A stretch of 64,000 nucleotides of DNA, taken from Deltaproteobacteria bacterium (GTDB lineage Bacteria > Desulfobacterota > Dissulfuribacteria > Dissulfuribacterales > UBA5754). The stretch covers positions 18,029 through 82,028 of the forward strand of contig JAINCN010000030.1 of the NCBI GenBank assembly GCA_036574075.1, in the 5' to 3' direction. The translations under genes and the position numbers were made by a program. The notes below the pieces were generated by a model. The model saw only the letters and a list, made by a program, of their open reading frames with translations, was not told the origin of the DNA and searched no databases. Every line of letters begins with the position of its first letter. Positions within the stretch are counted from its first letter, which is position 1. This document shows, piece after piece, positions 37,343 through 64,000 of this stretch.

Positions 37343-37345
37343 GTC

Positions 37346-43067: not shown

Positions 43068-43245
43068 CCGTGAATCCGTGAGATATGCACTCAACCTTTC
43101 GATTTCACAACATAAGCCTACGGGCCGGGGTATTTGTGGATGGAGGCGCCCACGGACGGGTCTCGAACGGCAAATCTGCCCCCATGGATGGGGGCTATTT
43201 GCCGCACGAAACAAATACCCCGGCCCGTAGGCTCACGGATTCAGG
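43068..43245 (-). repeat. MITE-like element, copy E (reverse orientation, full length)
   Basis: ccgtgaatccgtgagatatgcactcaacctttcgatttcac...ggcaaatctgcccccatgg...ccgtaggctcacggattcagg. Confidence 0.8.
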
Positions 43246-43956: not shown

Positions 43957-44298
43957 GGGTTGCAAGCCATTCGTAGAATTCAAGTTCTTCATAGAGATCC
44001 ATGGGCTCGGAAGTCGTCATGATCTCGAGGTCTTCGAACATATCTTGTCTCGCCGACCGATCTTCCGGGTGCCCGGATAGGAAGAATGAAAATGCGATGA
44101 GAACAAGGGCCGCAAGGGCGCCTGCAGGCAGGAGAAGGTGTCGAGCTCACGGGCCGTGTCCAGAAGGCGCCTCCCCCTATCAGCCAGCGTCCGGGGTAGG
44201 CATTACCGGCCGCCACGTCTAGGGCCATCGCCGAGGTCCACTAACGGCCCTGGTTCATCAACGGCACGAAACCGCCCGGGTCAGGGGGGCTACCCTGC

Positions 44299-48903: not shown

Positions 48904-49180
48904 GTATCCTCCAAAACGGGGAGAGACAAGGATTTCAGCGGACCCGAACTCAGTATTTGTAGCGTAACCGCCCTACACTGTCCATAGAGTCGATACCTGA
49001 ATCCGTGAAATACGGACTTAACTTGGCAATTTCTCAAAATAAGCCAATCTATCTGCCGGCAGGCAGCTCGGACAAAAATCCTCATTTTTCAAGGCACCCA
49101 TTGACGTAGATCAAGGTCAGCGAGGGCATGTAATGTCATTCCTGATTTCAAATGACAGTTTATCAACTGGAGGTTTTGCA

Positions 49181-49912
49181 ATGGGAAAAGTCATGCGAAA
49201 GATCATTGAAATAGACGAGGAACTTTGCAACGGATGCGGAAAGTGTGTGCCCAGCTGCGCCGAGGGCGCCATCCAGATCTTGAACGGCAAGGCCCGTATC
49301 GTATCCGAGCGGTTCTGCGACGGCCTCGGGGCCTGCATCGGGGACTGCCCTACCGGCGCGCTCAGTATCGTAGAGCGGGAGGCCGAGGAGTTCGACGAGG
49401 CCGAAGCCCATGCCCATGTCTCACGGATAAAGGCCATGGGGCAGACGATTCCTTGCGGTTGCCCCTCCAACCAGGTCCAGACATTTACGCCGGGGGTGAC
49501 GCAAACTCACGAAAAGGTGCGTCCCATGACAAAGGTCTCTATGCCATCGGCCCTCTCCCACTGGCCGGTCCAGATCCGGCTCGTTCCCCCGACCGCACCC
49601 TTTCTGAAAGGCTCGAGCCTTCTTATTGCGGCAGACTGCGTCCCTGTCGCGCACCCGTCGTTTCACAGAGACCTCTTGCATGGCAGAACGGTCCTCCTCG
49701 GCTGTCCCAAGTTCGACGACAGAGACTATTACGTGGAGAGATTGGCAGAGGTCTTCCTGAACGCCGAGGTCAGGGATGTCACCCTCGCGGTCATGGAGGT
49801 TCCGTGCTGTTCAGCCATGGAGGTCATCATACAAAAGGCCATGAAACAGGCGGGACGAGAGATTCCCGTCCGAAAGATCGTAGTCGGGATCAGGGGGGAT
49901 ATCCTCTCCTGA
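49181..49912 (+). CDS. 4Fe-4S dicluster domain-containing protein
   Basis: CNGCGKCVPSCAEGA and CDGLGACIGDCPTGA motifs; C-terminal WPVQIRLVPP...AADCVPVAH...GCPKFDD...MEVPCC region; ATG 49181 with ggagg upstream. Confidence 0.75.
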   Translation: MGKVMRKIIEIDEELCNGCGKCVPSCAEGAIQILNGKARIVSERFCDGLGACIGDCPTGALSIVEREAEEFDEAEAHAHVSRIKAMGQTIPCGCPSNQVQTFTPGVTQTHEKVRPMTKVSMPSALSHWPVQIRLVPPTAPFLKGSSLLIAADCVPVAHPSFHRDLLHGRTVLLGCPKFDDRDYYVERLAEVFLNAEVRDVTLAVMEVPCCSAMEVIIQKAMKQAGREIPVRKIVVGIRGDILS

Positions 49913-49924
49913 ACCCTGCATGAC

Positions 49925-52195
49925 CTACCAGACCCCGCGAAGCCCCAACTCCTTGCGCACCTTGTCCACCCGCCGCTCGAGATCCACCCTCCATTCGGCG
50001 TGGATCCGGGCGGCCGAGGGAGGGATGAGCTCCGGAAGGCCGTAAACGATACGATCCTCGGCCTGGCTCGTTTCGATGACCGCCTCAAGGGACCGTGCCC
50101 CGAACTTGTAGCGCGCAAGGAGAAGCCGGAGCAAAAGGCCTGAGGTCTTCCGCGCGGCCTTCTTCCAGTGGGTGTTCATCTGGTGGGCGATGACAAAGGC
50201 CCGTTTTATGAGAATCCGGTGCAGTTCGTCCAGCTCTTCGGGGCTGGCCGAATCGCTGAGAAGGCGGTCCGGAATCTCTATCCCCTCGATGTCCATGACT
50301 ACACGGAGCCTGCTCATGAAGTCCGGGATCTTGAGTGCTTTGACCGTATTCCAAGCGGACTTATCCTGCCGGGCAAGAAGCCCCAGCATGTCGTTCCAAG
50401 ACTCCTTGACCCCGCCTGCGAAAACAAAGATGGAGCGCCCGATGTAGCGAGGTGTGCCGTGGACGTATGTAACCCCGTCCTGCATGGAGGGTAGGAAATA
50501 ACGGAGATATCCGAACTCGTCGCCGTTGTAACGGCAGTCGAACTCGTCCCAGAAGGCGATGGGGATCTTCCCCTTTGCCACCGACGCCCTCACGAGATCG
50601 ATTGCCGAGTTGATCTCCTCAGGACCGGAAAACTGGGTGAGGTTGAACTGGAACAACTCAAAGGGATTTACCGTAAACCTTCGCGCCACGATTCGGGACA
50701 CCTCTTCCACAGCGAAGGATTTGCCGGATCCTGGAGGGCCGAAGACGCCGATGCAAAGTGGGCGCTTCACGAATTCCTTTGTGACGTAGCTTTCCATCAC
50801 CCCTTGGAGAGAGATGACGGGCTCGATCTCCGCGGGATCGACCGTGACAAAGGCACCCATCCTGAAGAGGCGCAGGTCGTCGAAACCGCCCCTGCGGTTG
50901 ACCTCCTCTTTCAGGCGGTGGAGAACAGAGAGGATCACCCGGAAGTATTCGGGGCGGAGCGCGCAGGCCTGTCCCAGGCCGAGCGTCCTCTCTTCAATAC
51001 CCCGGGTCGGACGCAGGAAAGACCTGAGGGCGGCCTTCCTCTCCATGCTCCATTCCTGGGATGAGACGAGTTCGAGGGTACGGTCGAAATCGGGACCTGG
51101 CTGCGGAAGATCGAAAAAATACACATCATCTCCGCGATCGAGGAAACTGGCCGGGGCCCCATTGGGATAGGTGGAGACGAAATCCAGGTTTGGGAACTCG
51201 AGCCCGTCTGTAAAATAATACCCATGGACAAAGATCTGGACCCAGTGCCGAAGGACCCGTTTGGAATAGTCGTAAAAAAAATTCCGCTGGGCAGGCACTT
51301 CTCCAAGTCTAAGACAGTCTACGACGAGCATGGCTGGGGCCAAGGTGTCATAGCAGGGAACGGACCCGGTCCGCCGGTTCGAGCCCCTGTCGGGTCGACT
51401 CCCCCTACCCTCCCTGTGCCTGAAATAGATGCCACAGGGCCCAGCATACAGAATCCCCCCTGGATACATCTGAACGATGACATGACACCGAAAGCGAGCC
51501 TGGTTGGCGTCCCAGAGGCCCACCTCCGGGCTCTTGAGCGCCCTCAGGATCATGGCGCAGACCGACTCCCAGAGGATGGCCGCATCCATCTCCATGCGGG
51601 ACGTATCGAGATCGGAACGGCGGCAAAAAAGGACGAACGATTCCCCGAACTCTCCGGCCCATTCCTCCCAACGTGCAGCAGATATCCCCATGGCCACGAC
51701 CCACGCCTCCGGGTTCAGCTCCTTCATCTGGCACGCGATTGCGGGCGGGGCACCTCCATCGTCTATTACGATGATCCCGGCGTTTCCACAAAGATGCTCC
51801 CTGGGATATTGCGCCAGGTCAAATTCCTCTGCCTCCACATGGCGTCCACCCGGCGGCAGGATCTGATGGACCATGAACCATCCATGCCCGCTCGATCCAT
51901 CGAGAAACCTCAACTGCTTGAAGATCTGGAAGATCTTTCTTTCCCTGCCATACGCTAAGGTTCGAATCTGGGGGGTGAGGCCGGCTGTCGTCAGAAAGGA
52001 CGAAAGCCACGTGAGAAACTGTTCCGAACGCCCCTCCTCCACAGTGACGTTTCCTGCGAGAAGCTCAATGAAATCACCAGGATCGTAGCCGTAGTCAGGA
52101 AGGCTCCCCTGGGCGAGCATCCGGACCTCCTGTACTGGCAGGTTTGTTATGGTCGCTCGGGAACCTAGGACAAGGATCTTTTTCTCAAGAGACAT
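49925..52195 (-). CDS. AAA+ ATPase with large uncharacterised N-terminal region
   Basis: 756 aa; Walker A GVFGPPGSGKSF, Walker B IAFWDEFD, FVFAGG sensor-like motif in the C-terminal third. I could not assign the first ~450 aa to any family. Confidence 0.7.
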   Translation of the reverse strand: MSLEKKILVLGSRATITNLPVQEVRMLAQGSLPDYGYDPGDFIELLAGNVTVEEGRSEQFLTWLSSFLTTAGLTPQIRTLAYGRERKIFQIFKQLRFLDGSSGHGWFMVHQILPPGGRHVEAEEFDLAQYPREHLCGNAGIIVIDDGGAPPAIACQMKELNPEAWVVAMGISAARWEEWAGEFGESFVLFCRRSDLDTSRMEMDAAILWESVCAMILRALKSPEVGLWDANQARFRCHVIVQMYPGGILYAGPCGIYFRHREGRGSRPDRGSNRRTGSVPCYDTLAPAMLVVDCLRLGEVPAQRNFFYDYSKRVLRHWVQIFVHGYYFTDGLEFPNLDFVSTYPNGAPASFLDRGDDVYFFDLPQPGPDFDRTLELVSSQEWSMERKAALRSFLRPTRGIEERTLGLGQACALRPEYFRVILSVLHRLKEEVNRRGGFDDLRLFRMGAFVTVDPAEIEPVISLQGVMESYVTKEFVKRPLCIGVFGPPGSGKSFAVEEVSRIVARRFTVNPFELFQFNLTQFSGPEEINSAIDLVRASVAKGKIPIAFWDEFDCRYNGDEFGYLRYFLPSMQDGVTYVHGTPRYIGRSIFVFAGGVKESWNDMLGLLARQDKSAWNTVKALKIPDFMSRLRVVMDIEGIEIPDRLLSDSASPEELDELHRILIKRAFVIAHQMNTHWKKAARKTSGLLLRLLLARYKFGARSLEAVIETSQAEDRIVYGLPELIPPSAARIHAEWRVDLERRVDKVRKELGLRGVW

Positions 52196-52244
52196 GGCCG
52201 TACCCTCCTCTTAACACAGACTCTACCGTCGTCATCTCACCTCG

Positions 52245-53303
52245 TCATCCTCCTTTCTCCTTCGAGGGAACATGACGATCCCTGGGGCCAGAAACCCCAT
52301 CACGACTGGTCATCTTGATAAGTCTGCTTACGGGGACGATGTCGATTTCTGACCGCATCGAAGGGAGTTCGGCGGAGAGGACCTCGTAAGTACTCTTGTA
52401 GGGATGGCCGATGGCAATGGCGAAGCCATGGTGACGCGCAACGTCAGCAGCGGCCCGCAGGGCCTTCGAGACGGCCTCGGGCCTCGGATCGTCGTCCAGA
52501 AAGACGGACCGTTCGAGCGCGGGGACCGCAAGGGAATCCGCCACCTCCATGGCCACGGAGTCGGCTGTAGTCCTGCTGTCCACGAAAAAGAGCCCCTTTC
52601 TCTTCACCTCGGCAAGGACAAACTCCATCCCCTTCCTGTCCGCCGTAAACCGTGACCCCATGTGGTTGTTGACGCCCACCGCAAAGGGGACGGCGGCAAG
52701 GTCCCGATCGAGCACCTGCACGATCATGTCCGGATCCATCCCCGTCAGGAGGACACCTGGACCGGGATCCACTGCGGGATCCCTGGGTTCCATGGGCAGA
52801 TGGACAAGTACGTCCCGTCCCTTGTCATGGGCATCTTTTGCGAATCGCTTCGTATGCCTCGCATAGGGAAGAAAGGCAAAGGACAGGGGGCACTCAAGAT
52901 CGAGCAAGGCCCGGTTTATGGTGTGATCGTGGCCCATGTCGTCGATGATGATCGCCAATGCGGGCCGATGCCCGGCAACAGGACTGGGATACTCGTCTGC
53001 AGGACGACCATGGCTGGAAGGGATCGGAGGAGAGACCTTCTCCTTTGGCGCTCCAGGCAGGGCCTGAGTAGGAGATTCGGGCGGAGCCGTGGGCCGGGCT
53101 TCCTCGAAAGGAGGAGGGACGTACCTTACCACACGGGTAGGCTCAGGCTTTGGAAGCAGAAAAAGAAGAGCGAGGATCGCCCCGATGAGTCCGAAAAAAA
53201 TGAGACCACCGACGAGGCCAGGAAATCTCCTACCAGTCGAAGTCCCTTTCCCCTTCCCCTTTCCCGATGCCTTCAATCCTCCGTTTCTGGCCTTTCTGGC
53301 CAT
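52245..53303 (-). CDS. divergent polysaccharide deacetylase family protein (YibQ-like)
   Basis: 352 aa; TM anchor, LAIIIDDMGH, FLPY, NNHMGSRFT motifs. Confidence 0.8.
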   Translation of the reverse strand: MARKARNGGLKASGKGKGKGTSTGRRFPGLVGGLIFFGLIGAILALLFLLPKPEPTRVVRYVPPPFEEARPTAPPESPTQALPGAPKEKVSPPIPSSHGRPADEYPSPVAGHRPALAIIIDDMGHDHTINRALLDLECPLSFAFLPYARHTKRFAKDAHDKGRDVLVHLPMEPRDPAVDPGPGVLLTGMDPDMIVQVLDRDLAAVPFAVGVNNHMGSRFTADRKGMEFVLAEVKRKGLFFVDSRTTADSVAMEVADSLAVPALERSVFLDDDPRPEAVSKALRAAADVARHHGFAIAIGHPYKSTYEVLSAELPSMRSEIDIVPVSRLIKMTSRDGVSGPRDRHVPSKEKGG

Positions 53304-53307
53304 CTCA

Positions 53308-54663
53308 TCAGTGGGCCGACGATATCATATTGGACGGACCGTACTGGGAAAAGGCGGACAGGAGCCTCCATGCCTTGAGGATCCTGAGCGCCTCCTCGAC
53401 CTGATTGTCGATGGGGGCATCTTCGGCAGTCAGGTCTTCCTTTTCGTCCTTCGAATCCTTTTTCTGGGAAACGTCAGGGGCGAGATGGCCCTTGAGGTCC
53501 TTCTCCGTAATGAAATGGGATCTGTCTGCCTGGCCATTTTCCAGTTTCTCCCTGGGATCGAAGGGGACCACGATGTCAGGCTGGATACCCGTGGCCTGGA
53601 TGGACCTCCCGCTCGGGGTGTAATATCGGGCGGTGGTCAACCTGACGGCGGAACCGTCCTCAAGGGGGATGATGGTCTGAACGGATCCCTTTCCGAAGGT
53701 CTGGGTCCCGAGGATGATGGCCCTCTTCTGGTCCTGAAGGGCGCCGGCCACGATCTCAGCTGCGCTCGCGCTCCCCTCGTTCACAAGGACCACGATAGGA
53801 TAATCCCGGGGATGATCGTTCGGGTGTGCCTCGAAACGGATCTTCTGTTCCTTGATCCGTCCGTCCGTATAGACAATAAGGCCGGATTCGAGAAACTCGT
53901 CGGAGACCTGGACGGCCTGGTCGAGGAGACCGCCAGGGTTGTTCCTCAGGTCGAGGACGAGACCCTTGAGGCCGCTGTTTTTCGCCTCCAGTTCATCGAG
54001 GGCCTTGCGCAGGTCCGCCGTGGTCTTGTCCTGGAAGTTCGTGATGCGCACATACCCGTACTCGGAATTGAGCGGACGGGAGCGGACGCTCATAAGGGGG
54101 ATCACATCCCTGGTGAGGGTGAAGTCCTTTAACTCTGTCCACCCCTCGCGCATGATGGTAACGGTGACATCGGTCCCCTTTTTCCCCCGGAGGAGCTTGA
54201 CGGCCTCGATGAGGGTCATGTCTTTGGTGAGCTTGCCATCTATCTTGATGATCTTGTCCTTGGCCTTGAGACCCGCCTTGTCTGCCGGGGTCCCCTCAAT
54301 GGGGGAGACGACGGTCAGCGCCCCGTCCTTCAAGGTGATCTCGATCCCGATTCCGCTGAAGACGCCCTTGGTCTCCACCTGGAGTTCCTTGAACTCATCT
54401 GGTGTGAGAAACGAAGAATGGGGATCGAGGGAGCTCAACATCCCCTGGATGGCGCCCTGGATCATGTCTTTCGATTTCGTCTCATCCACGTAGTTCCGCT
54501 CAACCAGGTCCAGGATCTCCGCAAAGGTCTTGAGCTGTTCGTATGTTTCGCTCTCCCGGGCCGAGGCCAGGCGTTGGGTCTGATAGATGCCTGTAACGAT
54601 AACGAAAACCGTGACGATTCCGATCACTATCCAGGGACTGCGTGACCTTAGGGACATGACCAT
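53308..54663 (-). CDS. ctpA: S41 family carboxyl-terminal processing peptidase
   Basis: 451 aa; PDZ region (GIGIEITLKDGALTVVSPIEGTPADKAGL), catalytic SASAAEIVAGAL and GTQTFGKGSVQT. Confidence 0.9.
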   Translation of the reverse strand: MVMSLRSRSPWIVIGIVTVFVIVTGIYQTQRLASARESETYEQLKTFAEILDLVERNYVDETKSKDMIQGAIQGMLSSLDPHSSFLTPDEFKELQVETKGVFSGIGIEITLKDGALTVVSPIEGTPADKAGLKAKDKIIKIDGKLTKDMTLIEAVKLLRGKKGTDVTVTIMREGWTELKDFTLTRDVIPLMSVRSRPLNSEYGYVRITNFQDKTTADLRKALDELEAKNSGLKGLVLDLRNNPGGLLDQAVQVSDEFLESGLIVYTDGRIKEQKIRFEAHPNDHPRDYPIVVLVNEGSASAAEIVAGALQDQKRAIILGTQTFGKGSVQTIIPLEDGSAVRLTTARYYTPSGRSIQATGIQPDIVVPFDPREKLENGQADRSHFITEKDLKGHLAPDVSQKKDSKDEKEDLTAEDAPIDNQVEEALRILKAWRLLSAFSQYGPSNMISSAH

Positions 54664-54732
54664 ACAAGTTCTCCTACTACGATTAAATCAGGATAAAACA
54701 TCCATTGATCAACGGCAATCGTATGGTGCGAT

Positions 54733-55941
54733 TCACGTGTCCTTCTCTTTCTCAACGAAAGGCTCCATACCCCGAAGATCAAGCCATTTTCGAGGGTCTT
54801 CCTCCCTCCCCTCCTGGCGTATTTCGAGGTAGATCCCTTCCGGTACCCAGGCCCCTCCCCCGGAAAGGCCGATCACATCCCCCTCGACGACCTGCTGGCC
54901 GACCTTCACAAACGATTTCATGACCTGCGCGGTGAGGCTGTAGTAGAGATCCCCGTGGTCAATAATGACGCAGTTTCCGTATCCCTCGAGGGCCCCTTGA
55001 TACACGACGATCCCGTCAAAGACGGCCCTGACCTCCGACCCCATAGGCGCCCGGATCGCAATCCCCGAGGACTTCTTGTGAAAGGGGGTCCTGCCCTTGG
55101 GAAGGATCTCCCCGCGAGGAAGTGGAGGCGTAAGCCTCCCCTTCTGGTCCCGGAAACGGTCCACTCCGACAAATGATGCCGAAAGCCCGCGTGATGCCTG
55201 GTCCACGGACCGGAGGTCGTCAACGACCTCCTGAAGGGACCTCTTGGCCCCCTGAAGTTCCAGGACCGTCCTTTGAAGGCGTTTCTCTTTGGCAAGCAGG
55301 CCCTCGTAAAAGGTCTTTCGCACCATTTTCCTTTTTTCGAGGGCAAGTGTCTCGGCCTCGAGCCTTCTGGTCGTCTCCTCCAAGGCATTCCTTTCCTTCA
55401 CCAGTTCGGCCTGACGGGCAGAGACCTCCGAGATGTCCCTGACATAGCCGTTGCGGAGTTCCTTGTCCCGAGCCAGGATGAGCCGGAGATATTCCTCTCG
55501 TGCAAGGAGCTCGGGGAAACTTTCAGCTGAAAAGAGGATGTTCAGGGTCCCGAGGGGCCCCATACGGTAAAAGGCCCGAAGACGGGTCTCCACAAGGCGC
55601 TTCCGTTTCTCGAGCTCTGCCTTGGAGACCTGCATCTCGTTTTGCATCTGTTCGATCCGGAGTTCCCGGTTGGTCAACTCCCGTCGAAGAGAGTCAACAA
55701 GGCCCCATTGTTCCATGATACGCGCATCCAGGCCGGAAAGTTCGGCAAGGACGGATTTCTTCTCCTTGGCGACCTCCCTTTCCTTCTTTCTCTCCGCCTC
55801 GAGCCTCTGTTCGATGGTCTTGAGCCGCTCCTGCCGGACCTCCAGGTCCCGCTGCACCGCCTGTTCCTCTGCGTTCACGATGGAAGGGACAAGGAGTGCG
55901 CAGATCCAAAAAACACGGAAGGACAGAAGACGCAGGTTCAC
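54733..55941 (-). CDS. murein hydrolase activator EnvC-like (coiled coil + M23 peptidase domain)
   Basis: GTG 55941 overlaps the ftsX stop (GTGA). Signal peptide, long Glu/Arg/Leu coiled coil, C-terminal M23-type GYGNCVIIDHGDLYYSLTAQ...GIYLEIRQEG. Confidence 0.8.
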   Translation of the reverse strand: MNLRLLSFRVFWICALLVPSIVNAEEQAVQRDLEVRQERLKTIEQRLEAERKKEREVAKEKKSVLAELSGLDARIMEQWGLVDSLRRELTNRELRIEQMQNEMQVSKAELEKRKRLVETRLRAFYRMGPLGTLNILFSAESFPELLAREEYLRLILARDKELRNGYVRDISEVSARQAELVKERNALEETTRRLEAETLALEKRKMVRKTFYEGLLAKEKRLQRTVLELQGAKRSLQEVVDDLRSVDQASRGLSASFVGVDRFRDQKGRLTPPLPRGEILPKGRTPFHKKSSGIAIRAPMGSEVRAVFDGIVVYQGALEGYGNCVIIDHGDLYYSLTAQVMKSFVKVGQQVVEGDVIGLSGGGAWVPEGIYLEIRQEGREEDPRKWLDLRGMEPFVEKEKDT

Positions 55942-56819
55942 GGTCGGGCGTAGCGCTGTATGGAGAGATACGTCATAAGGAGGCACAGAAGGACACTCGC
56001 AATGGAGACGGCCGCGACCACTGTCCACGGGAGAAAAACGATGGAGACGTCCTTGAAGAGGCGAGTCCCGGCAAGGAAACCTCGAAGGGAGAGAAACGCA
56101 AGATAGGTGCACATGATGGCAGCAGCAGCACCAACCGCGCCCTGGATCACGGCGGCCACGAGAAACGGGGCCTTGATGAAGGAGCTGGTCCCTCCGACAA
56201 GGCCCATAATCTCGATCTCGTCCTTACGGGCGAAGACAGAGAGCTGGATGGTCGTAGAGACCACAAAGGCCGCTGTCAGGAGGAGAAGGACGCTCACTCC
56301 GGCAAGGACGACATCTGCGGCATCCGTAAACGCGTTGAGTCGGGCGATCCACTCCTGTCCGTACTGGACCTTTTCCACGTTTTCGTAACCCTCTATCTCG
56401 TTCGCCACCTTCCTGACCCGGTCCAGATTGAAAATGGCCTTGTCGAGATAGAGCTCGAAAGAAGGGGGGAGAAATTGGGGATCCACCCCCTCGAGGACTG
56501 CCTTTTCCCCGGCGAGATCCTTTTCGAGACGGGCGAAGGCCTCCTCCGGAGACACGTAACGGACGGATTTCACACCGGCAAGCCGAGAAAGGGTATCGTA
56601 GAGTTGGGGAACTCGACCAGGCGGGGTCCCATCCTCGAGATAGACGACGAGGCCAAGCTCCGAGCTGAAACGATCGACAAAGACCCGAAGATTATGGGTG
56701 AAAAAGGCAAAACAGGAGATGATCAAAAGGGAGAGGGTCACCACGAGGGTGGTCAGGAGCTGACGGACCCAGTCCCTTTTCATGTCAGAGAGGGCGCGCC
56801 TGAAAAGGACACCGATCAT
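55938..56819 (-). CDS. ftsX: cell division permease-like protein FtsX
   Basis: 293 aa; four TM segments with a large first periplasmic loop; follows ftsE with a 4-nt overlap. Confidence 0.9.
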   Translation of the reverse strand: MIGVLFRRALSDMKRDWVRQLLTTLVVTLSLLIISCFAFFTHNLRVFVDRFSSELGLVVYLEDGTPPGRVPQLYDTLSRLAGVKSVRYVSPEEAFARLEKDLAGEKAVLEGVDPQFLPPSFELYLDKAIFNLDRVRKVANEIEGYENVEKVQYGQEWIARLNAFTDAADVVLAGVSVLLLLTAAFVVSTTIQLSVFARKDEIEIMGLVGGTSSFIKAPFLVAAVIQGAVGAAAAIMCTYLAFLSLRGFLAGTRLFKDVSIVFLPWTVVAAVSIASVLLCLLMTYLSIQRYARP

Positions 56820-57490
56820 GACGCAAGCCTCCCACCTTCGAGCCTCAACACCCGTCGGTATGTGTGGGCGAAAAACCGTTCGTTATGGGTCGCGAAGACG
56901 ATCGTAGTCCCCTGGGCATTGAGCTCATCCATGATGCCCATGACCTCGTCCGCCCGCCGGGTATCGAGATTTCCCGTGGGCTCGTCAGCCAGGATGATGG
57001 GCGGCCTGTTCACCACGGCCCGTGCGAGGGCCACCCTCTGCTGTTCCCCGCCCGAAAGTTGAAGGGGATAATGTTTCAGCTTTCCGGCAAGCCCTACGGC
57101 ATCAAGGACATGCCGGACCCTTTTTTCGATCTGGTCCCTGGAGACCCCGACGACCTCGAGGCTAAGGGCCACGTTCTCGAAGATCGTCTTGGCAGGTAGG
57201 AGCTTGAAGTCCTGGAAGACGACCCCGATCTTACGCCTAAGATACGGGATCTGTGCCCCGGCGACACTTGAAAGCGCAATGCCGTCGATCCAGATCTCTC
57301 CAGAGGTCGGCCTCTCCGCGCAAAACAGGAGCTTTAGGAACGTGGTCTTGCCCGAACCGCTCGGCCCTGTCAGAAAAACGAATTCGCCCTTTTCGATCTC
57401 ACAACTCACCTGAAAGAGAGAAACGATGTCTGGGGGATATGTCTTCGTGACCCCATCCATCCGGATGATCTGCTTTTCGAGTGCGGCCAT
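56816..57490 (-). CDS. ftsE: cell division ATP-binding protein FtsE
   Basis: GPSGSGKTT, LSGGEQQRVALARA, ILADEPTGNLD. Confidence 0.95.
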   Translation of the reverse strand: MAALEKQIIRMDGVTKTYPPDIVSLFQVSCEIEKGEFVFLTGPSGSGKTTFLKLLFCAERPTSGEIWIDGIALSSVAGAQIPYLRRKIGVVFQDFKLLPAKTIFENVALSLEVVGVSRDQIEKRVRHVLDAVGLAGKLKHYPLQLSGGEQQRVALARAVVNRPPIILADEPTGNLDTRRADEVMGIMDELNAQGTTIVFATHNERFFAHTYRRVLRLEGGRLAS

Positions 57491-57795
57491 ATTGTAAACC
57501 TTTCAAGCAGATGAAACGGATTTAAGGCACGGAATTGCCATGGGCAAGGATCCTCGGGGCATTCCTGAGGTCCCATGACCAACCGGCAGTTCAGGATTGA
57601 AGATGAAGGCCACCGACAGGCATTCTCAAGGCGTTTTGAGGTTCCCCTAAGGTACTTATCGGCGACTATAGCATTTTCCCGAAACAGTGCAATTTTTTCA
57701 AAATCGACGTCCGGGGTGTTTGTGGATGGAGGCGTCCATGGACGGGGCTCGATGGGGCTTAAGATTTCTCCTCGCTATCGCTCGTCGAAATGACA

Positions 57796-57970
57796 CCTGA
57801 ATCCGTGAGCCTACGGCCAGGGTATTTGTTCCGTGCGGCAAATAGCCCCCGTCCATGGGGGCAGATTTGCCGTTCGAGCCCCGTCCATGGGCGCCTCACT
57901 CCACAAATACCCCGGCCGTAGGCTTATGCTGTGAAATCGAAAGGTTGAGTGCATATCTCACGGATTCAGG
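57796..57970 (+). repeat. MITE-like element, copy F (best-preserved reference copy)
   Basis: cctgaatccgtgag...ctcacggattcagg 14-bp terminal inverted repeats; internal inverted pairs cctacggccagggtatttgt/acaaataccccggccgtagg and gcggcaaatagcc/ggcagatttgccg; flanked by tgaca on both sides. Confidence 0.85.
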
Positions 57971-58040
57971 TGACATTGCTGTCGCTGACCCTCCTGTCAT
58001 TTCGAGCGAAGCGAGAAATCTTGTCAATTCGGCCGTCGGC

Positions 58041-59684
58041 TCACGGATTCAGGCTTCTTTCAGAAGCCCGTTGTGTAAAGACCCTTGACATATTGAGCAG
58101 TGGGCGCACGAATTCCCATGCGCTTTTGATCTTCAGTATGCCTGCCGGGCAGGCATTGACGCATCTTCCACACCCCATGCATTCAACGGTTTTTATGCGG
58201 CCCGTTTTTACAAACTCCTTGACAGGGATCCCCATATCACATACCGATTCGCATTTACCACATTTAAGACATTTGTCTCCATCCGCCTCTATTCGATAGA
58301 AACCCAAATAGCTATACAGACCCCAAAGAGCTGCATACGGACAAAGTATCCTGCAGTAACTCCTGTTCCCAAAAAGCGGGAGGAAGAGATAACTGAAGTA
58401 GTAGCTCTCCGTAAGCACAGTGTAATAGTAGGTCCCAACCTTTTCATAGGCATGGACAGGATCGAAGATAATCCATCCTAAATACGTGAGCATAAATGCA
58501 AGAAATACGTATTTTAAGTAACGAAGCCTCCACCACAGACGGTTTCTGGGCGTCATCCTCCTGAAGGCGAAACCAACCGTCTCGCGCGTGGCCACACAGG
58601 GACAGTTCCACCCGCAGTCGAGTCTCCTTCCAAAAAAGAGCATCAAAAATCCGTAACCGAAAAACATGGCCGAGCCGATGACATGAATGGCAGGCCATAG
58701 GGAGTGTCTGCCGTCAAGTCCGGGAACCGTGATACCCATCACATAGGGCATGACACCCCAAAATATCAGATACAACCATACAATGACATGGATCCTGATC
58801 TTCTGGTATCGATCCTCCTTGAGAAAAAACCTGTAGAGCCCGAAGGCGAAGACAAAAACAAAGACCATAAAATCAGACAAATACATGGGCCTATCGCCCA
58901 CATCGAAGATCTTTTTGTTGAAAATGTGAGATATGACGAGAAGAACGGCGGCCCCGTAGCTTACTGCCCCAAGGGAGAGATATCGGCGGTCCCTGACCGC
59001 CTCCCTGAATATCCACCAGAGTATCTTGACCCCTGCCCTGACGCTCCCGGTTACTGTACCGCTTATCTTGGAGATCCCTGACCTGCGTTTCAGGTAATCC
59101 ACGGCCACTTCTTTAGTCCTCAGTCCCATACGCACGGCCTTGATCTGCATCTCCACGGTCCAGCCAAAATCGCGGTCTTCCATGGAGAGCCTTTCCAGGG
59201 CCGTCCAAGTGATCGCCCTGAACGGCCCCAAGTCCGTAAACCTCCTGCCCCATACAAGATAAATGAGAAAGACGGCCAGCATGTTGCCGAATCTCTGTAC
59301 AGCTGTAAGCGCCCCCTTCTCCACATTACCAAGGGCCCTGCTCCCTATTACCAGATCAAAGGCGCCTGATGCCAAAGGTGTCAGCAGCCTGCACATTTGA
59401 GAGAGATCTTCGCTGGCATCCCCATTGGCGAATACCACTATATCAGGGGGGGACTTTTGCAGGTGCTTCAAGGCGGCAAGACAGGCCGAACCGTATCCCC
59501 TAAGAGAGGCGGATACGACCTCAGCGCCAAGCGATGCGGCTATCCTCGCCGTATCGTCCTCGGAGCCGTTATCAGAAACGATTATTCTGTCCACATAATC
59601 CGGACAGTTTGAGATGACCTTCTCTATTCCCTGGGCCTCGTTGAGGGCCGGTATAACAAGGGCTACTGTTTTATTTTTGAACAT
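58041..59684 (-). CDS. family 2 glycosyltransferase fused to a polytopic membrane region and a C-terminal 2x[4Fe-4S] ferredoxin-like domain
   Basis: 547 aa; GT2 N-terminus VALVIPALNEAQGIEKV...VSDNGSEDDT...ANGDASED; about 8 hydrophobic segments; C-terminal CLKCGKCESVCDMG and CMGCGRCVNACPAG. Confidence 0.75.
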   Translation of the reverse strand: MFKNKTVALVIPALNEAQGIEKVISNCPDYVDRIIVSDNGSEDDTARIAASLGAEVVSASLRGYGSACLAALKHLQKSPPDIVVFANGDASEDLSQMCRLLTPLASGAFDLVIGSRALGNVEKGALTAVQRFGNMLAVFLIYLVWGRRFTDLGPFRAITWTALERLSMEDRDFGWTVEMQIKAVRMGLRTKEVAVDYLKRRSGISKISGTVTGSVRAGVKILWWIFREAVRDRRYLSLGAVSYGAAVLLVISHIFNKKIFDVGDRPMYLSDFMVFVFVFAFGLYRFFLKEDRYQKIRIHVIVWLYLIFWGVMPYVMGITVPGLDGRHSLWPAIHVIGSAMFFGYGFLMLFFGRRLDCGWNCPCVATRETVGFAFRRMTPRNRLWWRLRYLKYVFLAFMLTYLGWIIFDPVHAYEKVGTYYYTVLTESYYFSYLFLPLFGNRSYCRILCPYAALWGLYSYLGFYRIEADGDKCLKCGKCESVCDMGIPVKEFVKTGRIKTVECMGCGRCVNACPAGILKIKSAWEFVRPLLNMSRVFTQRASERSLNP

Positions 59685-59808
59685 CGGTCAACCACATTTT
59701 GTTGATTCCACTCCACAACCCCACTGTTGATGAACGATCAAAGTTCACGCCCCCTCAGGTCTCTGTAAGATCCCGAGGGTCTTCATCCCTGTCCGGGGAA
59801 TGCACAAT

Positions 59809-62800
59809 TCAGTGCCTTTCCCATAGGGGGCACGCGGGCCCGATGCATTCCCGGTTTTTGGCCGACTGCCGGCACCTGAGCGGGTAATCCGCCTTAAGCG
59901 TGACGGTAAGGAGCCACCGGGACCATTCCGCGGCCTTTACGAGGGCGATCCACGAGTCCCGCTGGCAGCAGCGGGCTGCGGCAAAACGGGCCTGCTCCTT
60001 GATCACTGATTGGCAGATCTCCTGCACCTGCCTGCGCTCCCGCGCCTTGATGGGGCTCGCCCCCAGGATGAGGCCAAAGGCGATGCCCACCCCAATGGCG
60101 GCTCCACACGCCCCGGTGAAGGCGCAGTTTCCGCCTGGAACAGCGCCTCCCCGCCTGAGTGCAGTCTCAAGCATCCCCTCTGTTACGTGTCCTCCCAGGT
60201 TCCTGTAGGTGGCAAGGATCAGCCCTGGCACCAGGATATGGTACTCCGGCCCGTGCATGGAGATGGATGGGTGCCTGCGGATGGCATCGAACAGGAATAC
60301 CATGTCGGTCTCCCGGGTGGTGCGCAGGGCATGGGCGATGAATGAAGCGGCATCCCGGCTGTGGCATGTATCGCAGACGAAGTGTCCCTGCTCGCACACC
60401 GCGTTTGCCGGAAGCTCGGCACCGCAGAAGAAACAGGCGTGGGTGGCCTCCTCCGGGAGATAACGAATGGGGGCGCCGCAGACCATACAGCCTGATACAT
60501 GCCTCTGGGAAAGAAGGGATATGGGCATGGTTCGACCCGAAGAAGATGCGCACGGTCCGCTCCCATGGCGACAGGCCGTTTCCGCAAGCGCCTGGGATTC
60601 GGCGCAGCAGGATGACGACGGTCCCCTGTCCGGCAAACAGCAGAAGGACGGGGCCATCTCCACGTTTGTGACCGCACCAGACTCGTCGAACACAAAGAGG
60701 TCGTGCGCATCCGCCAGGCCCGGGTCAAGGACGATCTCCCTCGTAGCCCCCACGGGAAGGATCTCGCCCCGGGTGGTCACTACCGCAGAGAACGGCCCCC
60801 GGTACATGACCTGCATCCTCTTGGGGGTCACGGGTTTTTCGGCCCTATAAGTCATGGAGAAAAATCGATGGCCCGAGACCTGACGGTACGGAAAACGTTT
60901 TAGGACCCGGGGGGCCACGAAACCCGCCTCTTCGAGGAGACCGAAGAGGTCCCGCTGCGTCAATGCCCCGGCGATGCACTGCCCCCGGAGGACGTCGTCG
61001 TTCCTGATGGCGGGGTCGGGCTCGGTCTCGCAGACCACATCCGAGATTACGAGACGCCCTCCAGGCTTGAGGACCCTGAATATCTCGGCAAAGGCCCGGC
61101 GCTTGTGGCCGGAAAGATTGATCACGCAGTTGGAAAGGACCACGTGTATGGCGGCATCCGGAACCGGCAGCTCCTCCAGATATCCCTTCCTGAAATCGAG
61201 GTTTCCGTATCCCAGTCTGGCCGCCACCTCCCGAGCACCCTTGTGCGCCCTTTGGAGCATGGACTCCAGCATGTCCACCCCGATGACCCATCCCTTTTCC
61301 CCAACGAGGCGGGATGCGATGAAACATTCGACACCGGTCCCACAACCGAGATCAAGCACGCGCTCTCCGGGTGCAAGCCCCGCGTCCAGGACCGGACTTC
61401 CGCAGCCGTAGCCCCGGAACCTGAACTCGGGCGGTATGTGGCTGACGATCTCATCCGGATAACAGACCGGGTTCAAGATGTCCTCCCGGGTCGTTTCCGA
61501 TGCGGCCTGATAAAAATCCTTCACCACGGTGCGGCTGTCCGGGGTTGCGGCAGCAAGGAGGCAGTTGGTGTGGGTGAGGGCCACGGCCCCATGGGCCCCG
61601 CAGCTTTCAAGGATGTCACCCATCCTGAGTCGAAGCCGCGGGGGGCCGGAGGCGGGTTCGTGCGCCGCCTCACGGGCGATGAGCCAAAGGGCCGTCTGTT
61701 CATGGAGGGATTCATACGGGTCCTGCCCAACAAAGCTGCCCCCATGCATGTAGCTATGGTCCGGATCCCCGCCCCCAAGAATAAAGCGAAGGGGCGAGGA
61801 GATCCGAGAAGCGGTTGCCTGTCTCACATGCTCGAGGACCGGGCTTTCCCGCCAGGCGCGGGCGAGATCAGGGCCGATCCCGGTCGCCAGGGCATCGACA
61901 CCCACGAGGGCCGCAGAGGGATAGAGCCGATCGTCCGGCCCGACTGCCACGGATTCCCATCCGCTCCCTGCACCGTCGTGGATTGTCCCGACTGGGGCAA
62001 AGACCTGTGACCTGAGGGCCGTCAGGTTGTCTATGGTGATCCCCGCCTTCTCGGCCCGATCCGCCGCCTTCACAAGCCGGGGGAAGATTTCTTCAGGCGT
62101 GGCAAACCTCTCCCTCGATCCGCGCCCGCGAACGAAATACCACATGAAATGGCAGTTCGAGGCCCCCACACCAGCTGCGAAATCGACCAAGTCCGGCATG
62201 TCCTGGACGTTTTCCGCATTCACGCACATGGACAGGGTGAAGGGGACCCCTAACTTCTTGAGCCATGCGAGGTTTTCCGTCAGGGTATCGAAGGCCCTGC
62301 GGCCCCGAATATGGTCGTGCCTCTTGCCAAGCCCATCCATGCTGATCTGGAGGTGGAAACGGTCACGAGGCCAGCGTTTGAGGCCCTTTTCGTGCTCCCT
62401 GAGGAGGGTGCCGTTCGTGAGGACCACCACATGGGAGGCCTTCCTCGAAAGGAGGTCCTCCACGATGGCATCGAAGTCAGGGTGGACCATGGGTTCCCCG
62501 CCGGTGAGGGCGAAAACCCGGCATCCGAGGGCATAGGCCTGGTCTGCAAGATCCTGGATGCGTGCTAAAGGAAGTTCCTCAGCCGTGACTGGCGAGCAGG
62601 CGAAAAGGCAGTGTCTGCATGCCTGGTTGCAGCGGTTGGTCACATGGAACCAGATCTCGCGCAAGTGGTCGAGGCAAAGGTGATGGGCCCGGCCGCTGTA
62701 GCAGCGGTCAGGCGGGTCTTCCGGAAGGCGCGACAAAAAGAGGCGCCCCTCCATATCGAGTGCCCCAGGACCGCCATCCGCAAGCCTTTTGAGTATCCTG

Positions 62801-62904
62801 TCTCCGGCATCGTTTGGGACAAACCAGTCAGGTCTGTCCCCCCTTACATAGATGGGTATCCCATCTGATTCGTACCGGGCCCAGCCCACTATGGAAAACG
62901 GCAT
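59809..62904 (-). CDS. tripartite fusion: radical SAM domain + ArsM-like SAM methyltransferase + Cys-rich C-terminal domain
   Basis: 1031 aa; HVTNRCNQACRHCLF radical-SAM cluster motif; methyltransferase VLDLGCGTGVE with YGCG, SNCVINL and GQCIAGAL cysteine motifs; C-terminal CMVCG...CFFCG...CEQGHFVCDTCH and GGNCAFTGACGAAIG. Confidence 0.7.
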   Translation of the reverse strand: MPFSIVGWARYESDGIPIYVRGDRPDWFVPNDAGDRILKRLADGGPGALDMEGRLFLSRLPEDPPDRCYSGRAHHLCLDHLREIWFHVTNRCNQACRHCLFACSPVTAEELPLARIQDLADQAYALGCRVFALTGGEPMVHPDFDAIVEDLLSRKASHVVVLTNGTLLREHEKGLKRWPRDRFHLQISMDGLGKRHDHIRGRRAFDTLTENLAWLKKLGVPFTLSMCVNAENVQDMPDLVDFAAGVGASNCHFMWYFVRGRGSRERFATPEEIFPRLVKAADRAEKAGITIDNLTALRSQVFAPVGTIHDGAGSGWESVAVGPDDRLYPSAALVGVDALATGIGPDLARAWRESPVLEHVRQATASRISSPLRFILGGGDPDHSYMHGGSFVGQDPYESLHEQTALWLIAREAAHEPASGPPRLRLRMGDILESCGAHGAVALTHTNCLLAAATPDSRTVVKDFYQAASETTREDILNPVCYPDEIVSHIPPEFRFRGYGCGSPVLDAGLAPGERVLDLGCGTGVECFIASRLVGEKGWVIGVDMLESMLQRAHKGAREVAARLGYGNLDFRKGYLEELPVPDAAIHVVLSNCVINLSGHKRRAFAEIFRVLKPGGRLVISDVVCETEPDPAIRNDDVLRGQCIAGALTQRDLFGLLEEAGFVAPRVLKRFPYRQVSGHRFFSMTYRAEKPVTPKRMQVMYRGPFSAVVTTRGEILPVGATREIVLDPGLADAHDLFVFDESGAVTNVEMAPSFCCLPDRGPSSSCCAESQALAETACRHGSGPCASSSGRTMPISLLSQRHVSGCMVCGAPIRYLPEEATHACFFCGAELPANAVCEQGHFVCDTCHSRDAASFIAHALRTTRETDMVFLFDAIRRHPSISMHGPEYHILVPGLILATYRNLGGHVTEGMLETALRRGGAVPGGNCAFTGACGAAIGVGIAFGLILGASPIKARERRQVQEICQSVIKEQARFAAARCCQRDSWIALVKAAEWSRWLLTVTLKADYPLRCRQSAKNRECIGPACPLWERH

Positions 62905-62951
62905 CCTTTAGTGTCTACACCGCAGTAAACACGATGGTGCAGGAAAAACCC

Positions 62952-63827
62952 CTATCTCTTTCCCCAGAAGTGGACGAGTGAGATCCCCCAGGTCTCACCC
63001 TTTGCAATGCTCTCGCCATAGAGGTCCCCACGGTAGAAGCCCTCCACCGAGAACCCCATGCCCACCTTTGCACCCAAGATGAGCTCCATGGTCCCGAGGT
63101 CGTACTCCACGCCGAGGGACGGGTTTAACTTGAAGGGCCCGTCCAGGGTCCTTGAGGGTCTGTCCCCGTTTCCGGCGGAAAGGATCCCAGAGAGCTTGGC
63201 CTGGGCATAAAGCCGCCACCAGTCGATGCCGTATTCGGCAACATACCGGATCTCGTCCGCCGGATCCCCCGTGCGCCAGCGGTATCCCGCCTCAAGATTC
63301 ACGTACCCGTATGGCCACAGGGACCGGCCTGCAAGGAGCCTCAGTTCGTAGTCCGTCTGGTTGTTGCCCGGCATGATCTCTTCGTCAGCGTCGTAGAGGA
63401 CCTCGCTCTTGACGAGAAATTGAGCGGAGAGGGCAGTAGCGCCCGTGAGGAAGCCGTATCTCGCGCCAAATTCCAGGTCCCCAAGGGTTTCTTGATCCGA
63501 GTACTTGAGGGTCTTGTCGTCCTCGCGACGATTCTTTCCCCAGTACATGTTCTTGTGGGGTAGGGAGGCGATGAGTGTAATCCGATCCGTTACCCCGTAC
63601 TCCCCGTACCACGTGACTTCGTGAGAACTGAAGGGGTATTCGAACGGGGTCCAGCCCTCTCCGCCGTGGGATCCGAAATTCTCGTCCGAATAGTAATAAT
63701 AATAGCTCAGTTTTTGGTAAAGCTCCCCCTGCTTCAGGGTCCAGGCCCCGGCGTGACAGACAGCAGGTGTCAAGGCTGCCGCCGCAAAGACTCCCATTGT
63801 TTTCACTATCATGCCCTTCATATCCAA
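62952..63827 (-). CDS. putative outer-membrane beta-barrel protein
   Basis: 291 aa; signal peptide ...AAALTPAVCHA; alternating aromatic/glycine-rich strands (YGEYG, EAGYRW, VEGFYRG); family not identified. Confidence 0.5.
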   Translation of the reverse strand: MDMKGMIVKTMGVFAAAALTPAVCHAGAWTLKQGELYQKLSYYYYYSDENFGSHGGEGWTPFEYPFSSHEVTWYGEYGVTDRITLIASLPHKNMYWGKNRREDDKTLKYSDQETLGDLEFGARYGFLTGATALSAQFLVKSEVLYDADEEIMPGNNQTDYELRLLAGRSLWPYGYVNLEAGYRWRTGDPADEIRYVAEYGIDWWRLYAQAKLSGILSAGNGDRPSRTLDGPFKLNPSLGVEYDLGTMELILGAKVGMGFSVEGFYRGDLYGESIAKGETWGISLVHFWGKR

Positions 63828-63858
63828 TCCTCCTTGATGGTTTGATGGTTTTGATCCT

Positions 63859-64000
63859 TTATGGAGATGCCCCGCTTGGCCGTCTTCTCTTCTCCCATTC
63901 CTCGGTCCCGCCCTCGAAGTTCTTCACGTCTTTAAAGCCGGAAAGCACGCTTACAGCCCATGCGTAACCGGAACGAATGCCGCCTGTGCAGTAGAAGACG
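63859..64000 (-). CDS. rhodanese-like domain protein (3' end only; gene continues beyond the window)
   Basis: Minus-strand translation VFYCTGGIRSGYAWAVSVLSGFKDVKNFEGGTEEWEKRRRPSGASP* contains the rhodanese active-site loop CTGGIRS; stop at 63859-63861. Confidence 0.7.
   Translation of the reverse strand, partial: VFYCTGGIRSGYAWAVSVLSGFKDVKNFEGGTEEWEKRRRPSGASP

Follow-up and report, generated by a model that had tools for sequence, protein, structure and literature searches.

This analysis concerns a window of 64,000 nucleotides (nt), the whole stretch analysed, from contig JAINCN010000030.1 of a Deltaproteobacteria bacterium of the order Dissulfuribacterales, and within it one gene whose 1031-residue product joins an enzyme of the radical S-adenosylmethionine (SAM) type to an arsenite methyltransferase (ArsM)-type domain and a cysteine-rich tail. 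We predict that this fusion protein is probably a self-contained enzyme of anaerobic bacteria that forms carbon-arsenic (C-As) bonds, and on balance we favor reading it as a bifunctional organoarsenical synthase that works in the place of ArsS, with ArsS-like adenosylation as its likeliest chemistry. ArsS adds the 5′-deoxyadenosyl radical to trivalent dimethylarsenic, DMAs(III), in a redox-neutral reaction that gives DDMAA (5′-deoxy-5′-dimethylarsinoyl-adenosine) (PMC13598754; bioRxiv 10.64898/2026.04.29.721666). Three bodies of evidence bear on this proposal: the genomic context of the fusion in related loci, the character of its methyltransferase domain, and the ancestry of its radical-SAM domain.

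Genomic context is the decisive evidence for the fusion in the operon slot of ArsS. It was examined in 83 fusion loci by all-against-all clustering of open reading frames (ORFs) and by Pfam counts over two genes per side, with the counts of TIGR04282 and of small ORFs taken over 81 loci, and by a cassette comparison that started from the partner protein, not from the fusion. The accessory genes of the cassette encode a DUF547 protein, a DedA/VTT protein, a MerA-like FAD oxidoreductase (Pyr_redox_2, NF004991), a GT87/MptA_B-like protein (GT87), and a triple fusion (tripleGT) of an AglJ-like GT2 with TIGR04282 and TIGR04283; in loci L088 and L091 they accompany ArsS, and in L052, L057, and L090 they accompany the fusion gene (Table 1). 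Of the five accessory proteins that L088 has in common with L052/L057, four are 44–61% identical, the GT87-like protein being ∼28–29% identical, and no other radical-SAM gene was found within 10 kb of the fusion in any of the 83 loci. Because gene order and accessory identity are shared, the ArsS versions reach 418–429 bits on the ArsS model TIGR04167 (genuine ArsS proteins from L086–L088), and no second radical-SAM gene lies nearby, one and the same cassette carries either ArsS or the fusion. Since the radical-SAM domain of the fusion shares only its core with ArsS, and arose instead from enzymes combining a recognition element (RRE) of ribosomally synthesized and post-translationally modified peptides (RiPPs), a radical-SAM (rSAM) core, and a SPASM domain, this would be a non-orthologous displacement. 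The DUF547-DedA/VTT-FAD oxidoreductase-GT87-tripleGT cassette is apparently undescribed. Where it carries ArsS, the gene before ArsS is of the fatty-acid-hydroxylase family, and there is no arsM within 8–10 kb.

The two glycosyltransferase families of this cassette also occur beside the fusion more widely. TIGR04282 (DUF2064) lies within 10 kb of it in 17 of the 81 loci, in about 12 of these within 2 kb and often overlapping or with a gap of <100 nt; it is often fused to the GT2 TIGR04283, both passing their curated cut-offs, and such neighbors were seen in Victivallales, Planctomycetaceae, Desulfuromusa, Desulfobulbaceae, and Myxococcales, among others. Both families recur beside ArsS as well, and NCBI names them 'arsenosugar biosynthesis glycosyltransferases', the JGI label being 'rSAM/selenodomain-associated transferases'. 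Further recurrent partners are DedA/VTT genes (12–13 loci), NapH-like or CCG Fe-S membrane proteins, and FAD-dependent disulfide-type oxidoreductases.

The methyltransferase domain is of the ArsM type by both fold and cysteines, as the initial annotation had proposed from its motifs; As(III) methylation itself is predicted from this homology. Pfam Methyltransf_31 covers amino acids (aa) 512–661 (E 9e-30) and spans the VLDLGCGTG motif of a class I methyltransferase, and among NCBIfam models arsenite methyltransferase PRK11873 scores best, with 214.4 bits over model positions 36–238 of 272, the next non-ArsM methyltransferase scoring 90 bits. The curated whole-protein cut-off of PRK11873, 263 bits, is not reached, a shortfall to be expected because the methyltransferase is a single domain of the fusion. 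The arsenosugar-type ArsM model NF038099 yields 121 bits vs a cut-off of 400, so that generic ArsM fits better. In the PDB, 5evj and 4fr0 match by sequence (E 1e-38, cysteines aligned), and the top Foldseek matches are CmArsM, CrArsM, and human AS3MT (4fr0/6cx6/5evj/8xt7; E 1e-18 to 1e-21, 28–36% identity, ∼280 columns), with 4fr0/6cx6 at E 1e-20 and 34–36% identity. When the cysteine pairs are counted on the printed HMMER alignment to CmArsM (PDB 4fr0/4kw7), the three motif cysteines that the initial annotation had matched to ArsM all find their partners, C501 (YGCG), C593 (SNCV), and C643 (GQCIAGAL) corresponding to C72, C174, and C224, and C481 corresponds to C44 besides. The As(III)-binding triad C501/C593/C643 is present in 196 of 197 aligned full-length family members, the set on which all conservation counts were made; one of the 197 departs at most conserved cysteine positions and looks like a mis-called outlier. 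C481, whose counterpart C44 pairs with C72 in a disulfide cascade, is kept in 70% of the family.

The ancestry of the radical-SAM domain lies outside ArsS, and here the suggestion of an ArsS-like domain, which the initial annotation had itself left unverified, does not stand at the sequence level. By sequence, the domain comes closest to generic members of the MoaA/NirJ/AlbA/SkfB class; the best 25 of 74 NCBIfam matches for aa 1–456 include no ArsL model, and the structural matches found by Foldseek for this half of the protein are SkfB, BlsE, SuiB (463 aligned columns), PqqE, and anSMEcpe. BLASTP aligned aa 1–65 in collinear fashion with the N-terminal part of P0204, where the Pfam PqqD domain of that protein (aa 19–76) lies, and we therefore regard this segment as RRE-like; no Pfam model, PqqD included, matched aa 1–84 at E ≤ 10. 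Farther along, all seven auxiliary-cluster cysteine positions of SPASM are substituted relative to P0204, with 'DLCNACY' replaced by 'DGAGSGW', 'YPC' by 'YPS', and 'CRSCPYRHLCGGGCYC' by 'ISSPLRFILGGGDPDH', while C435 and C448 at the end of the region are invariant; Pfam gave no match to aa 251–470 at E ≤ 10, PF13186 (SPASM) included. Taken together, these comparisons point to descent of the domain from the RRE-rSAM-SPASM lineage.

An exhaustive phmmer search with aa 1–470 against 1.84 billion representatives gave only 118 clusters at E ≤ 1e-30. By Pfam, ten sampled clusters are mostly fusions of radical SAM and methyltransferase (MT), two of the ten having no methyltransferase domain. Three architectures have an ArsM-type order, namely rSAM-MT-DUF5714, rSAM-MT (∼780–850 aa), and MT-rSAM-SPASM, and a fourth, PqqD-rSAM-SPASM-MT (the P0204 group), is more distant and RiPP-like; the ArsM cysteine triad is kept in nearly all members of the first three and is absent throughout the fourth. 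This distribution points to an ancient coupling of this radical-SAM clade to the ArsM-type domain, maintained through changes of gene order, and such persistence strongly suggests a single substrate for both activities. Three proteins of 680–711 aa (P0207, P0215, and P0224) place a triad-bearing ArsM-type methyltransferase ahead of radical SAM and an intact SPASM, with the auxiliary clusters retained. We put forward, tentatively and as a proposal that may well prove wrong, that the fusion represents a second, independently evolved radical-SAM lineage for C-As bonds, derived from RRE-SPASM peptide maturases by loss of both auxiliary clusters and permanently fused to ArsM and to DUF5714 as a new Cys-rich fold.

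A number of results weigh against the synthase proposal and are best considered together. On TIGR04167, the radical-SAM domain scores 56.5 bits, from the core only (aa 80–219), against a cut-off of 300; DUF3641 (PF12345), the C-terminal Cys-rich domain of ArsS, was not found even at E ≤ 10 on subregions; and BLASTP against genuine ArsS gave 30% identity over 129 aa, again in the core only. Because both TIGR04167 and DUF3641 were tested with these outcomes, the fusion protein stands outside the ArsS family. The RRE- and SPASM-type ancestry of its radical-SAM domain is one that it shares with peptide maturases that abstract hydrogen. Association with the ArsS partners is restricted to certain lineages (17 of 81 loci, and 2 of the 33 loci whose flanks extend at least 8 kb to either side); no neighbor is conserved family-wide in the 83 loci, partners being lineage-restricted in general, and the fusion gene stands alone in Maridesulfovibrio, Chlorobium, and many Desulfuromonadales. 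Within positions 1–64,000 of the window, hidden Markov models (HMMs) from related loci detected no TIGR04282 (DUF2064), TIGR04283, VTT, GT87, or Fer4-CCG. The word 'arsenosugar' in the names given to TIGR04282 and TIGR04283 appears to come from their association with ArsS, and the literature library searched held no experimental study of either family. Finally, no ars resistance genes are among the recurrent neighbor families, so that the choice of arsenic over another metalloid rests on the ArsM homology.

The mechanism that we envisage for the synthase proceeds in four steps, which draw on different kinds of evidence. Strong homology suggests that As(III) would be bound by C501/C593/C643, with C481 as the fourth ArsM cysteine, and be converted with SAM to methyl- or dimethyl-As(III), which the ArsM domain would hand in cis to the radical-SAM domain. 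There, as gene context suggests, a [4Fe-4S] cluster on C92/C96/C99, in the absence of auxiliary clusters, would cleave a second SAM reductively, and the resulting radical, most likely 5′-deoxyadenosyl as in ArsS, would attack the trivalent arsenic and form a further C-As bond; adenosylation or otherwise, formation of this bond by the fusion is a prediction. In ArsL, arsenic is held by C-terminal cysteines next to the radical-SAM core (bioRxiv 10.64898/2026.04.29.721666), and the ArsM thiolate site, just C-terminal of the radical-SAM core in the fusion, is analogous to them in position. A speculative third step assigns to the zinc-ribbon and DUF5714 tail a role as a redox, electron-transfer, or metalloid-handling module; under the second-lineage proposal, arsenic might be carried between the two active sites by the disordered Cys-rich linker or by DUF5714, and, equally speculatively, the RRE-like domain might bind the flexible linker or a partner. 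The vicinal CC dyad of the tail may, we assume, correspond to the Cys-Sec ('CU') motif of the metal-binding double selenoprotein MbdU. The context in relatives suggests a fourth step, in which the product would enter a membrane-associated glycosyl pathway comprising TIGR04282, TIGR04283, the AglJ-like GT2, the GT87-like protein, DedA/VTT, and the FAD/Fe-S oxidoreductase, and for which the GT2::NapH-like gene downstream of the fusion and the rhodanese upstream of it may stand in the window. The earlier idea of a one-protein route to a C-As bond has thus gained the ArsS operon slot and the TIGR04282/TIGR04283 neighbors in its favor, its chemical part still being a prediction.

Other explanations of the fusion must be weighed against this proposal. 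An unlikely one, though deserving attention, is that the radical-SAM and ArsM-type domains act on a metalloid by a different chemistry, such as transfer of a 3-amino-3-carboxypropyl (ACP) or methyl group or hydrogen abstraction from an As-bound organic group, or that the substrate is Sb, Se, or Te. Because the radical-SAM domain is non-orthologous to ArsS, identical chemistry is not required, and ArsL shows that the radical-SAM fold can bring a different radical to arsenic (bioRxiv 10.64898/2026.04.29.721666). Most loci, moreover, have no ArsS partner genes, which leaves room for a product other than an adenosyl or sugar derivative. The lack of ars resistance genes among the most frequent neighbor families fits another metalloid, and ArsM-type enzymes also methylate Se and Te. 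What holds us to ArsS-like adenosylation is that the fusion takes the exact position of ArsS in a conserved cassette, and the downstream enzymes would thus be given the same type of intermediate; the canonical CX3CX2C cluster motif adds weak evidence, ArsL having it likewise. A detoxifying anaerobic ArsM, in which the radical-SAM domain and DUF5714 would merely see to redox upkeep (re-reduction of the ArsM disulfide or electron supply) and no new type of C-As bond would be formed, strikes us as improbable. Such a role would suit a gene that is solitary in most genomes and a DUF5714 with weak likeness to the 'putative redox-active' C_GCAxxG_C_C family, and NCBIfam lists fusions of ArsM with AhpD, of ArsM with DUF2284, and of a methyltransferase with UXPK-star, that is, with Cys/Sec-rich redox or metal-binding domains (PMC13188914). 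It would, however, leave the replacement of ArsS in the cassette unexplained, and the gene is not embedded in ars operons. We know of no radical-SAM domain whose function is simply to reduce disulfides. In a 65-sequence alignment, the residues with which this domain binds SAM and its cluster are invariant, and C92, C96, and C99 are kept in 196 of 197 members, which points to real SAM cleavage.

Least probable of all, in our judgment, is a RiPP or protein maturase in which the RRE-like domain would recruit a peptide, the radical-SAM domain modify it, and the methyltransferase methylate it, the ArsM-like cysteines being a relic or a metal-cofactor site. The modeled RRE-like fold at the N-terminus, the collinear homology with a PqqD-rSAM-SPASM-MT protein, and the best structural matches of the N-terminal half (SkfB, SuiB, and PqqE) are all in keeping with it. 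The initial annotation had foreseen that a peptide-maturase radical SAM with a cognate precursor gene nearby would overturn its reading; the lineage is indeed of that kind, but no precursor was found. When small ORFs of 20–110 aa within 1.2 kb of the fusion were clustered over the 81 loci, none was conserved across lineages, those that did cluster being the ribosomal L21/L27 genes of Maridesulfovibrio and spurious overlapping frames, and the lack of both a conserved small ORF and a family-wide conserved neighbor argues against a RiPP system. Every SPASM cluster cysteine has been lost, and the ArsM triad is strictly conserved together with the motifs around it, in contrast to the truly RiPP-like P0204 group, which is without the triad.

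The gene itself is real and intact, since its product aligns end to end (99–100% coverage) with >100 database proteins of ∼1000 aa each at 53–85% identity. The three parts recognized in the initial annotation, radical SAM with CNQACRHC, methyltransferase, and a Cys-rich tail with CxxC pairs, were all borne out, and the protein proves to have more of them, its order being RRE-like, radical SAM, degenerate SPASM, ArsM-type methyltransferase, zinc-ribbon, and DUF5714, with a Cys-rich linker before the last two (Table 1). An AlphaFold2 model of the full length, built from 65 homologues, has a mean predicted local distance difference test score (pLDDT) of 87.1 and a predicted template modeling score (pTM) of 0.72, disorder being confined to the linker. 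In this model, the N-terminal domain comprises strands E8–13, E16–21, and E26–30 and helices H32–42 and H51–59, and the radical-SAM core bears GGEP at aa 135–138. C756 is the sole invariant cysteine of the linker. The CxxC...CxxC pairs sit in the beta hairpin ahead of DUF5714; the invariant residues of the hairpin are C806, C809, C824, C827, C837, C844, C847, H841, and H848, and DUF5714 in turn has invariant C927, C933, C979–C980, C1011, C1020, and C1025; 15 cysteines of the tail are each kept in 195–197 of the 197 members.

Judged by its profile scores, the fusion protein is a genuine member of DUF5714. The match to the C_GCAxxG_C_C family (PF09719; 17.3 bits, E 0.005, aa 913–980) stays below the threshold of 27 and suggests a kinship that is distant at most, while aa 763–1029 match the N-terminal half of MbdU (NF045648) with 123 bits. 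A model of the tail (pLDDT 85.8) found no fold match in the PDB. The window protein contains no selenocysteine codon, nor does the one intact relative checked (L079) have an in-frame TGA; three loci without an ORF call proved to be one intact ORF, one frameshifted copy, and one contig end, with no TGA at Cys positions.

Table 1. Features of the fusion gene and its surroundings in the window, and gene orders of ArsS- and fusion-bearing cassettes in related loci (coordinates of the latter are those of the locus).
Feature	Position	Strand	Description
Rhodanese-like gene, 3′ end	63859..64000	minus	Cut by window edge; active-site loop YCTGGIRS
291-aa protein	62952..63827	minus	Signal-peptide-like N-terminus; upstream of fusion gene, gap 48 nt
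Fusion gene	59809..62904	minus	1031-aa ORF, ATG start, zero internal stops (ORF list and translation)
N-terminal domain, PqqD/RRE-like	62710..62904	minus	aa 1–65; three beta strands and helices in the model
Radical-SAM core	62125..62658	minus	aa 83–260; Pfam PF04055 at aa 88–243, E 1e-23
Radical-SAM cluster motif	62608..62631	minus	C92-x3-C96-x2-C99 in CNQACRHC
Degenerate SPASM/bridging region	61540..62124	minus	aa 261–455; BLASTP vs P0204, which has Pfam SPASM
ArsM-type As(III) SAM methyltransferase	60670..61497	minus	aa 470–745; SAM-binding, As-binding, and C-terminal beta domains
Disordered Cys-rich linker	60511..60651	minus	aa 752–798; pLDDT <50 in both models
Zinc-ribbon-like beta hairpin	60355..60498	minus	aa 803–850; strands E813–824 and E830–837, pLDDT >90
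DUF5714 helical bundle	59821..60336	minus	aa 857–1028; PF18978 177–181 bits vs threshold 26.2, whole model length
GT2::NapH-like gene	58041..59684	minus	Downstream of fusion gene, gap 125 nt; Pfam and NCBIfam
L086 (cyanobacterial-type)			TIGR04282/3 - arsM - ArsS
L088 cassette	1828..10010		FA_hydroxylase - ArsS - DUF547 - VTT - Pyr_redox_2 - x - GT87 - tripleGT
L091 cassette	2984..12022		Same order as L088
L052 cassette	3293..14723		fusion - SDR - DUF547 - VTT - Pyr_redox_2 - GT87 - tripleGT
L057 cassette			Same order as L052
L090 cassette	1904..12046		DUF547 - VTT - Pyr_redox_2 - fusion - GT87 - tripleGT

In the window, the fusion gene is part of a minus-strand string that runs from the 3′ end of the rhodanese-like gene through the 291-aa gene and the fusion to the GT2::NapH-like gene. 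The last of these joins an AglJ/dolichyl-phosphate-hexose-synthase-like GT2 (aa 7–246) to a NapH/MauN-like polytopic domain with two 4Fe-4S motifs (aa 333–523), and it has counterparts among the domain fusions of partners in other loci, with Pyr_redox::NapH in L012 and L085, Fer4-CCG::VTT in L004 and L023, and GT2::TIGR04282::TIGR04283 in L052; a NapH-like domain stands alone in L032, and in L012, L032, and L085 it adjoins the fusion gene. The 291-aa protein has no Pfam or NCBIfam family. The window and L004 (9117..9986) are the only loci in which a 289–291-aa gene immediately precedes the fusion, and elsewhere it was seen in L023 (6060..6731); its product is Tyr- and Gly-rich and may be an outer-membrane protein.

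L004, whose fusion protein is 85% identical, has directly upstream TIGR04282, GT87, two GT2 (one AglJ-like), a rhodanese, Fer4-CCG-VTT, and the 289-aa gene, and shares with the window the rhodanese, the 289–291-aa gene, and the GT2 type. BLAST showed the window rhodanese to be syntenic with that of L004 at 77% nucleotide identity, although a rhodanese HMM matched nothing in 1..64000; the Fer4-CCG-VTT gene that follows the rhodanese in L004 is absent at that place in the window. Because only 1.1 kb of the window remains upstream of the fusion gene, the region equivalent to the L004 upstream set is out of view, and the other 58 kb hold nothing comparable. A scan for promoters and terminators over 57300..64000 gave counts no higher than the shuffled expectation, so that the operon limits are drawn from the 48- and 125-nt same-strand gaps only, and Rfam had no matches in the whole window.

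Farther downstream, the minus-strand genes at 49925..57490 are, by eye, what we take to be a 756-aa P-loop ATPase-like protein, a divergent polysaccharide deacetylase, a C-terminal processing protease, an M23/EnvC-like peptidase, FtsX, and FtsE, and a gap of ∼550 nt separates the ftsE-like gene from the GT2::NapH gene. An array of clustered regularly interspaced short palindromic repeats (CRISPR) occupies 37807..∼42300, with ∼63 copies of the 37-nt repeat ATTGATCCGATTGCCCTGATGAAGAAGGGATTAAGAC and spacers of ∼33 nt, some of which are duplicated (for example, at 41498 and 41710, 100% identical over 106 nt). The array accounts for the low-GC, ORF-poor stretch at 37.8–42.3 kb, for which a reading as rRNA was rejected, and the ORFs that flank it, one of them 1001 aa long (45898..48903), may be cas genes.

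A pattern scan of 185,579 genomes, one per species, found relatives of the fusion in 491, nearly all from lineages known as anaerobes. Among Desulfobacterota, the carriers belong to Desulfobaccales, Syntrophobacterales, Desulfuromonadales, and Maridesulfovibrio and include Desulfacinum hydrothermale DSM 13146; outside this phylum they are found in Pirellulaceae and Planctomycetaceae (Planctomycetota), Chlorobium, Prosthecochloris, Victivallales, Nitrospiraceae, Anaerolineales, and Acidobacteria. Members occur in isolate or complete genomes, namely those of Syntrophotalea acetylenivorans, Desulfuromonas sp. AOP6, D. hydrothermale DSM 13146, and Maridesulfovibrio sp. FT414. The nearest relatives are a metagenome protein with 85% identity and Desulfobacca/Desulfobaccales/Syntrophobacterales proteins with ∼64–70%, matches by which a Desulfobaccales-like deltaproteobacterium would be the probable source. 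Source annotations of the relatives read 'DUF5714 domain-containing protein', 'methyltransferase type 11', or generic COG names, nothing more specific, and no mention of DUF5714 or of a radical-SAM-ArsM fusion was found in the literature library searched. This is a conserved family without a name.

The concept that a radical-SAM enzyme and ArsM together lead to a C-As natural product is already established; what is undescribed, as far as we found, is the fused architecture, the independent radical-SAM origin, the DUF5714 module, and the anaerobic distribution. To our knowledge, ArsS and ArsL are the only radical-SAM enzymes shown to form C-As bonds, other routes that are not radical-based being available; both are stand-alone enzymes that have been studied in oxygen-tolerant organisms. 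If the chemistry is of the ArsS type, arsenic adenosylation would have evolved twice, and the fusion would offer a one-polypeptide system for the mechanism of methylation and radical alkylation on the same arsenic atom. If the second-lineage proposal holds, organoarsenicals of the adenosyl or sugar type, perhaps attached to lipids or the envelope, would be produced in anoxic sediments by sulfate reducers, Desulfuromonadales, anaerobic Planctomycetota, Victivallales, and green sulfur bacteria, and this would amount to a hidden anaerobic branch of the arsenic cycle. The synthase reading also predicts that organoarsenicals are made in anoxic sediments, paddy soils, and aquifers, settings in which the speciation of arsenic governs how toxic and how mobile it is. 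The family also offers an entry point to the function of DUF5714 and of the DUF547-DedA-FAD-oxidoreductase-GT87-TIGR04282/TIGR04283 cassette.

Among known systems, the closest is the pair of ArsS and ArsM (TIGR04167/DUF3641 and NF038099; for example, in L086), which likewise combines a radical-SAM enzyme with an As(III) SAM-methyltransferase and has in common with the fusion the partners TIGR04282 and TIGR04283 and, in some phyla, DUF547, VTT, Pyr_redox_2, and GT87, as well as the same operon position. The fusion differs from this pair in that both activities reside in one polypeptide, in that its radical SAM is of other descent (RRE, rSAM, and degenerate SPASM) and lacks DUF3641, and in that its methyltransferase is nearer to generic ArsM and is followed by the extra zinc-ribbon and DUF5714 tail. 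The likeness to ArsL and ArsM of the arsinothricin pathway, where ArsL makes a C-As bond on Cys-bound As(III) and ArsM methylates (PMC8552651; bioRxiv 10.1101/2024.02.01.577332; bioRxiv 10.64898/2026.04.29.721666), is looser and extends to the combination of radical SAM and ArsM; these are separate proteins of aerobic soil bacteria, encoded in ars operons and hence in another gene context, and ArsL releases an ACP radical. The families NF041536 (ArsM/DUF2284), NF041537 (ArsM/AhpD), and NF047649 (MTase/UXPK-star) resemble the fusion in that an ArsM-type domain precedes a Cys/Sec-rich putative redox or metal-binding domain (PMC13188914), and MbdU shares its zinc-ribbon and DUF5714 region, but none of these has a radical-SAM domain, and the fusion scores far below their cut-offs and has no selenocysteine codon. 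The RRE-rSAM-SPASM maturases (SuiB, PqqE, SkfB, and AlbA), lastly, agree with the N-terminal 460 residues of the fusion in fold and domain order, whereas the fusion is without their auxiliary-cluster cysteines and precursor gene and is joined to an ArsM-type domain.

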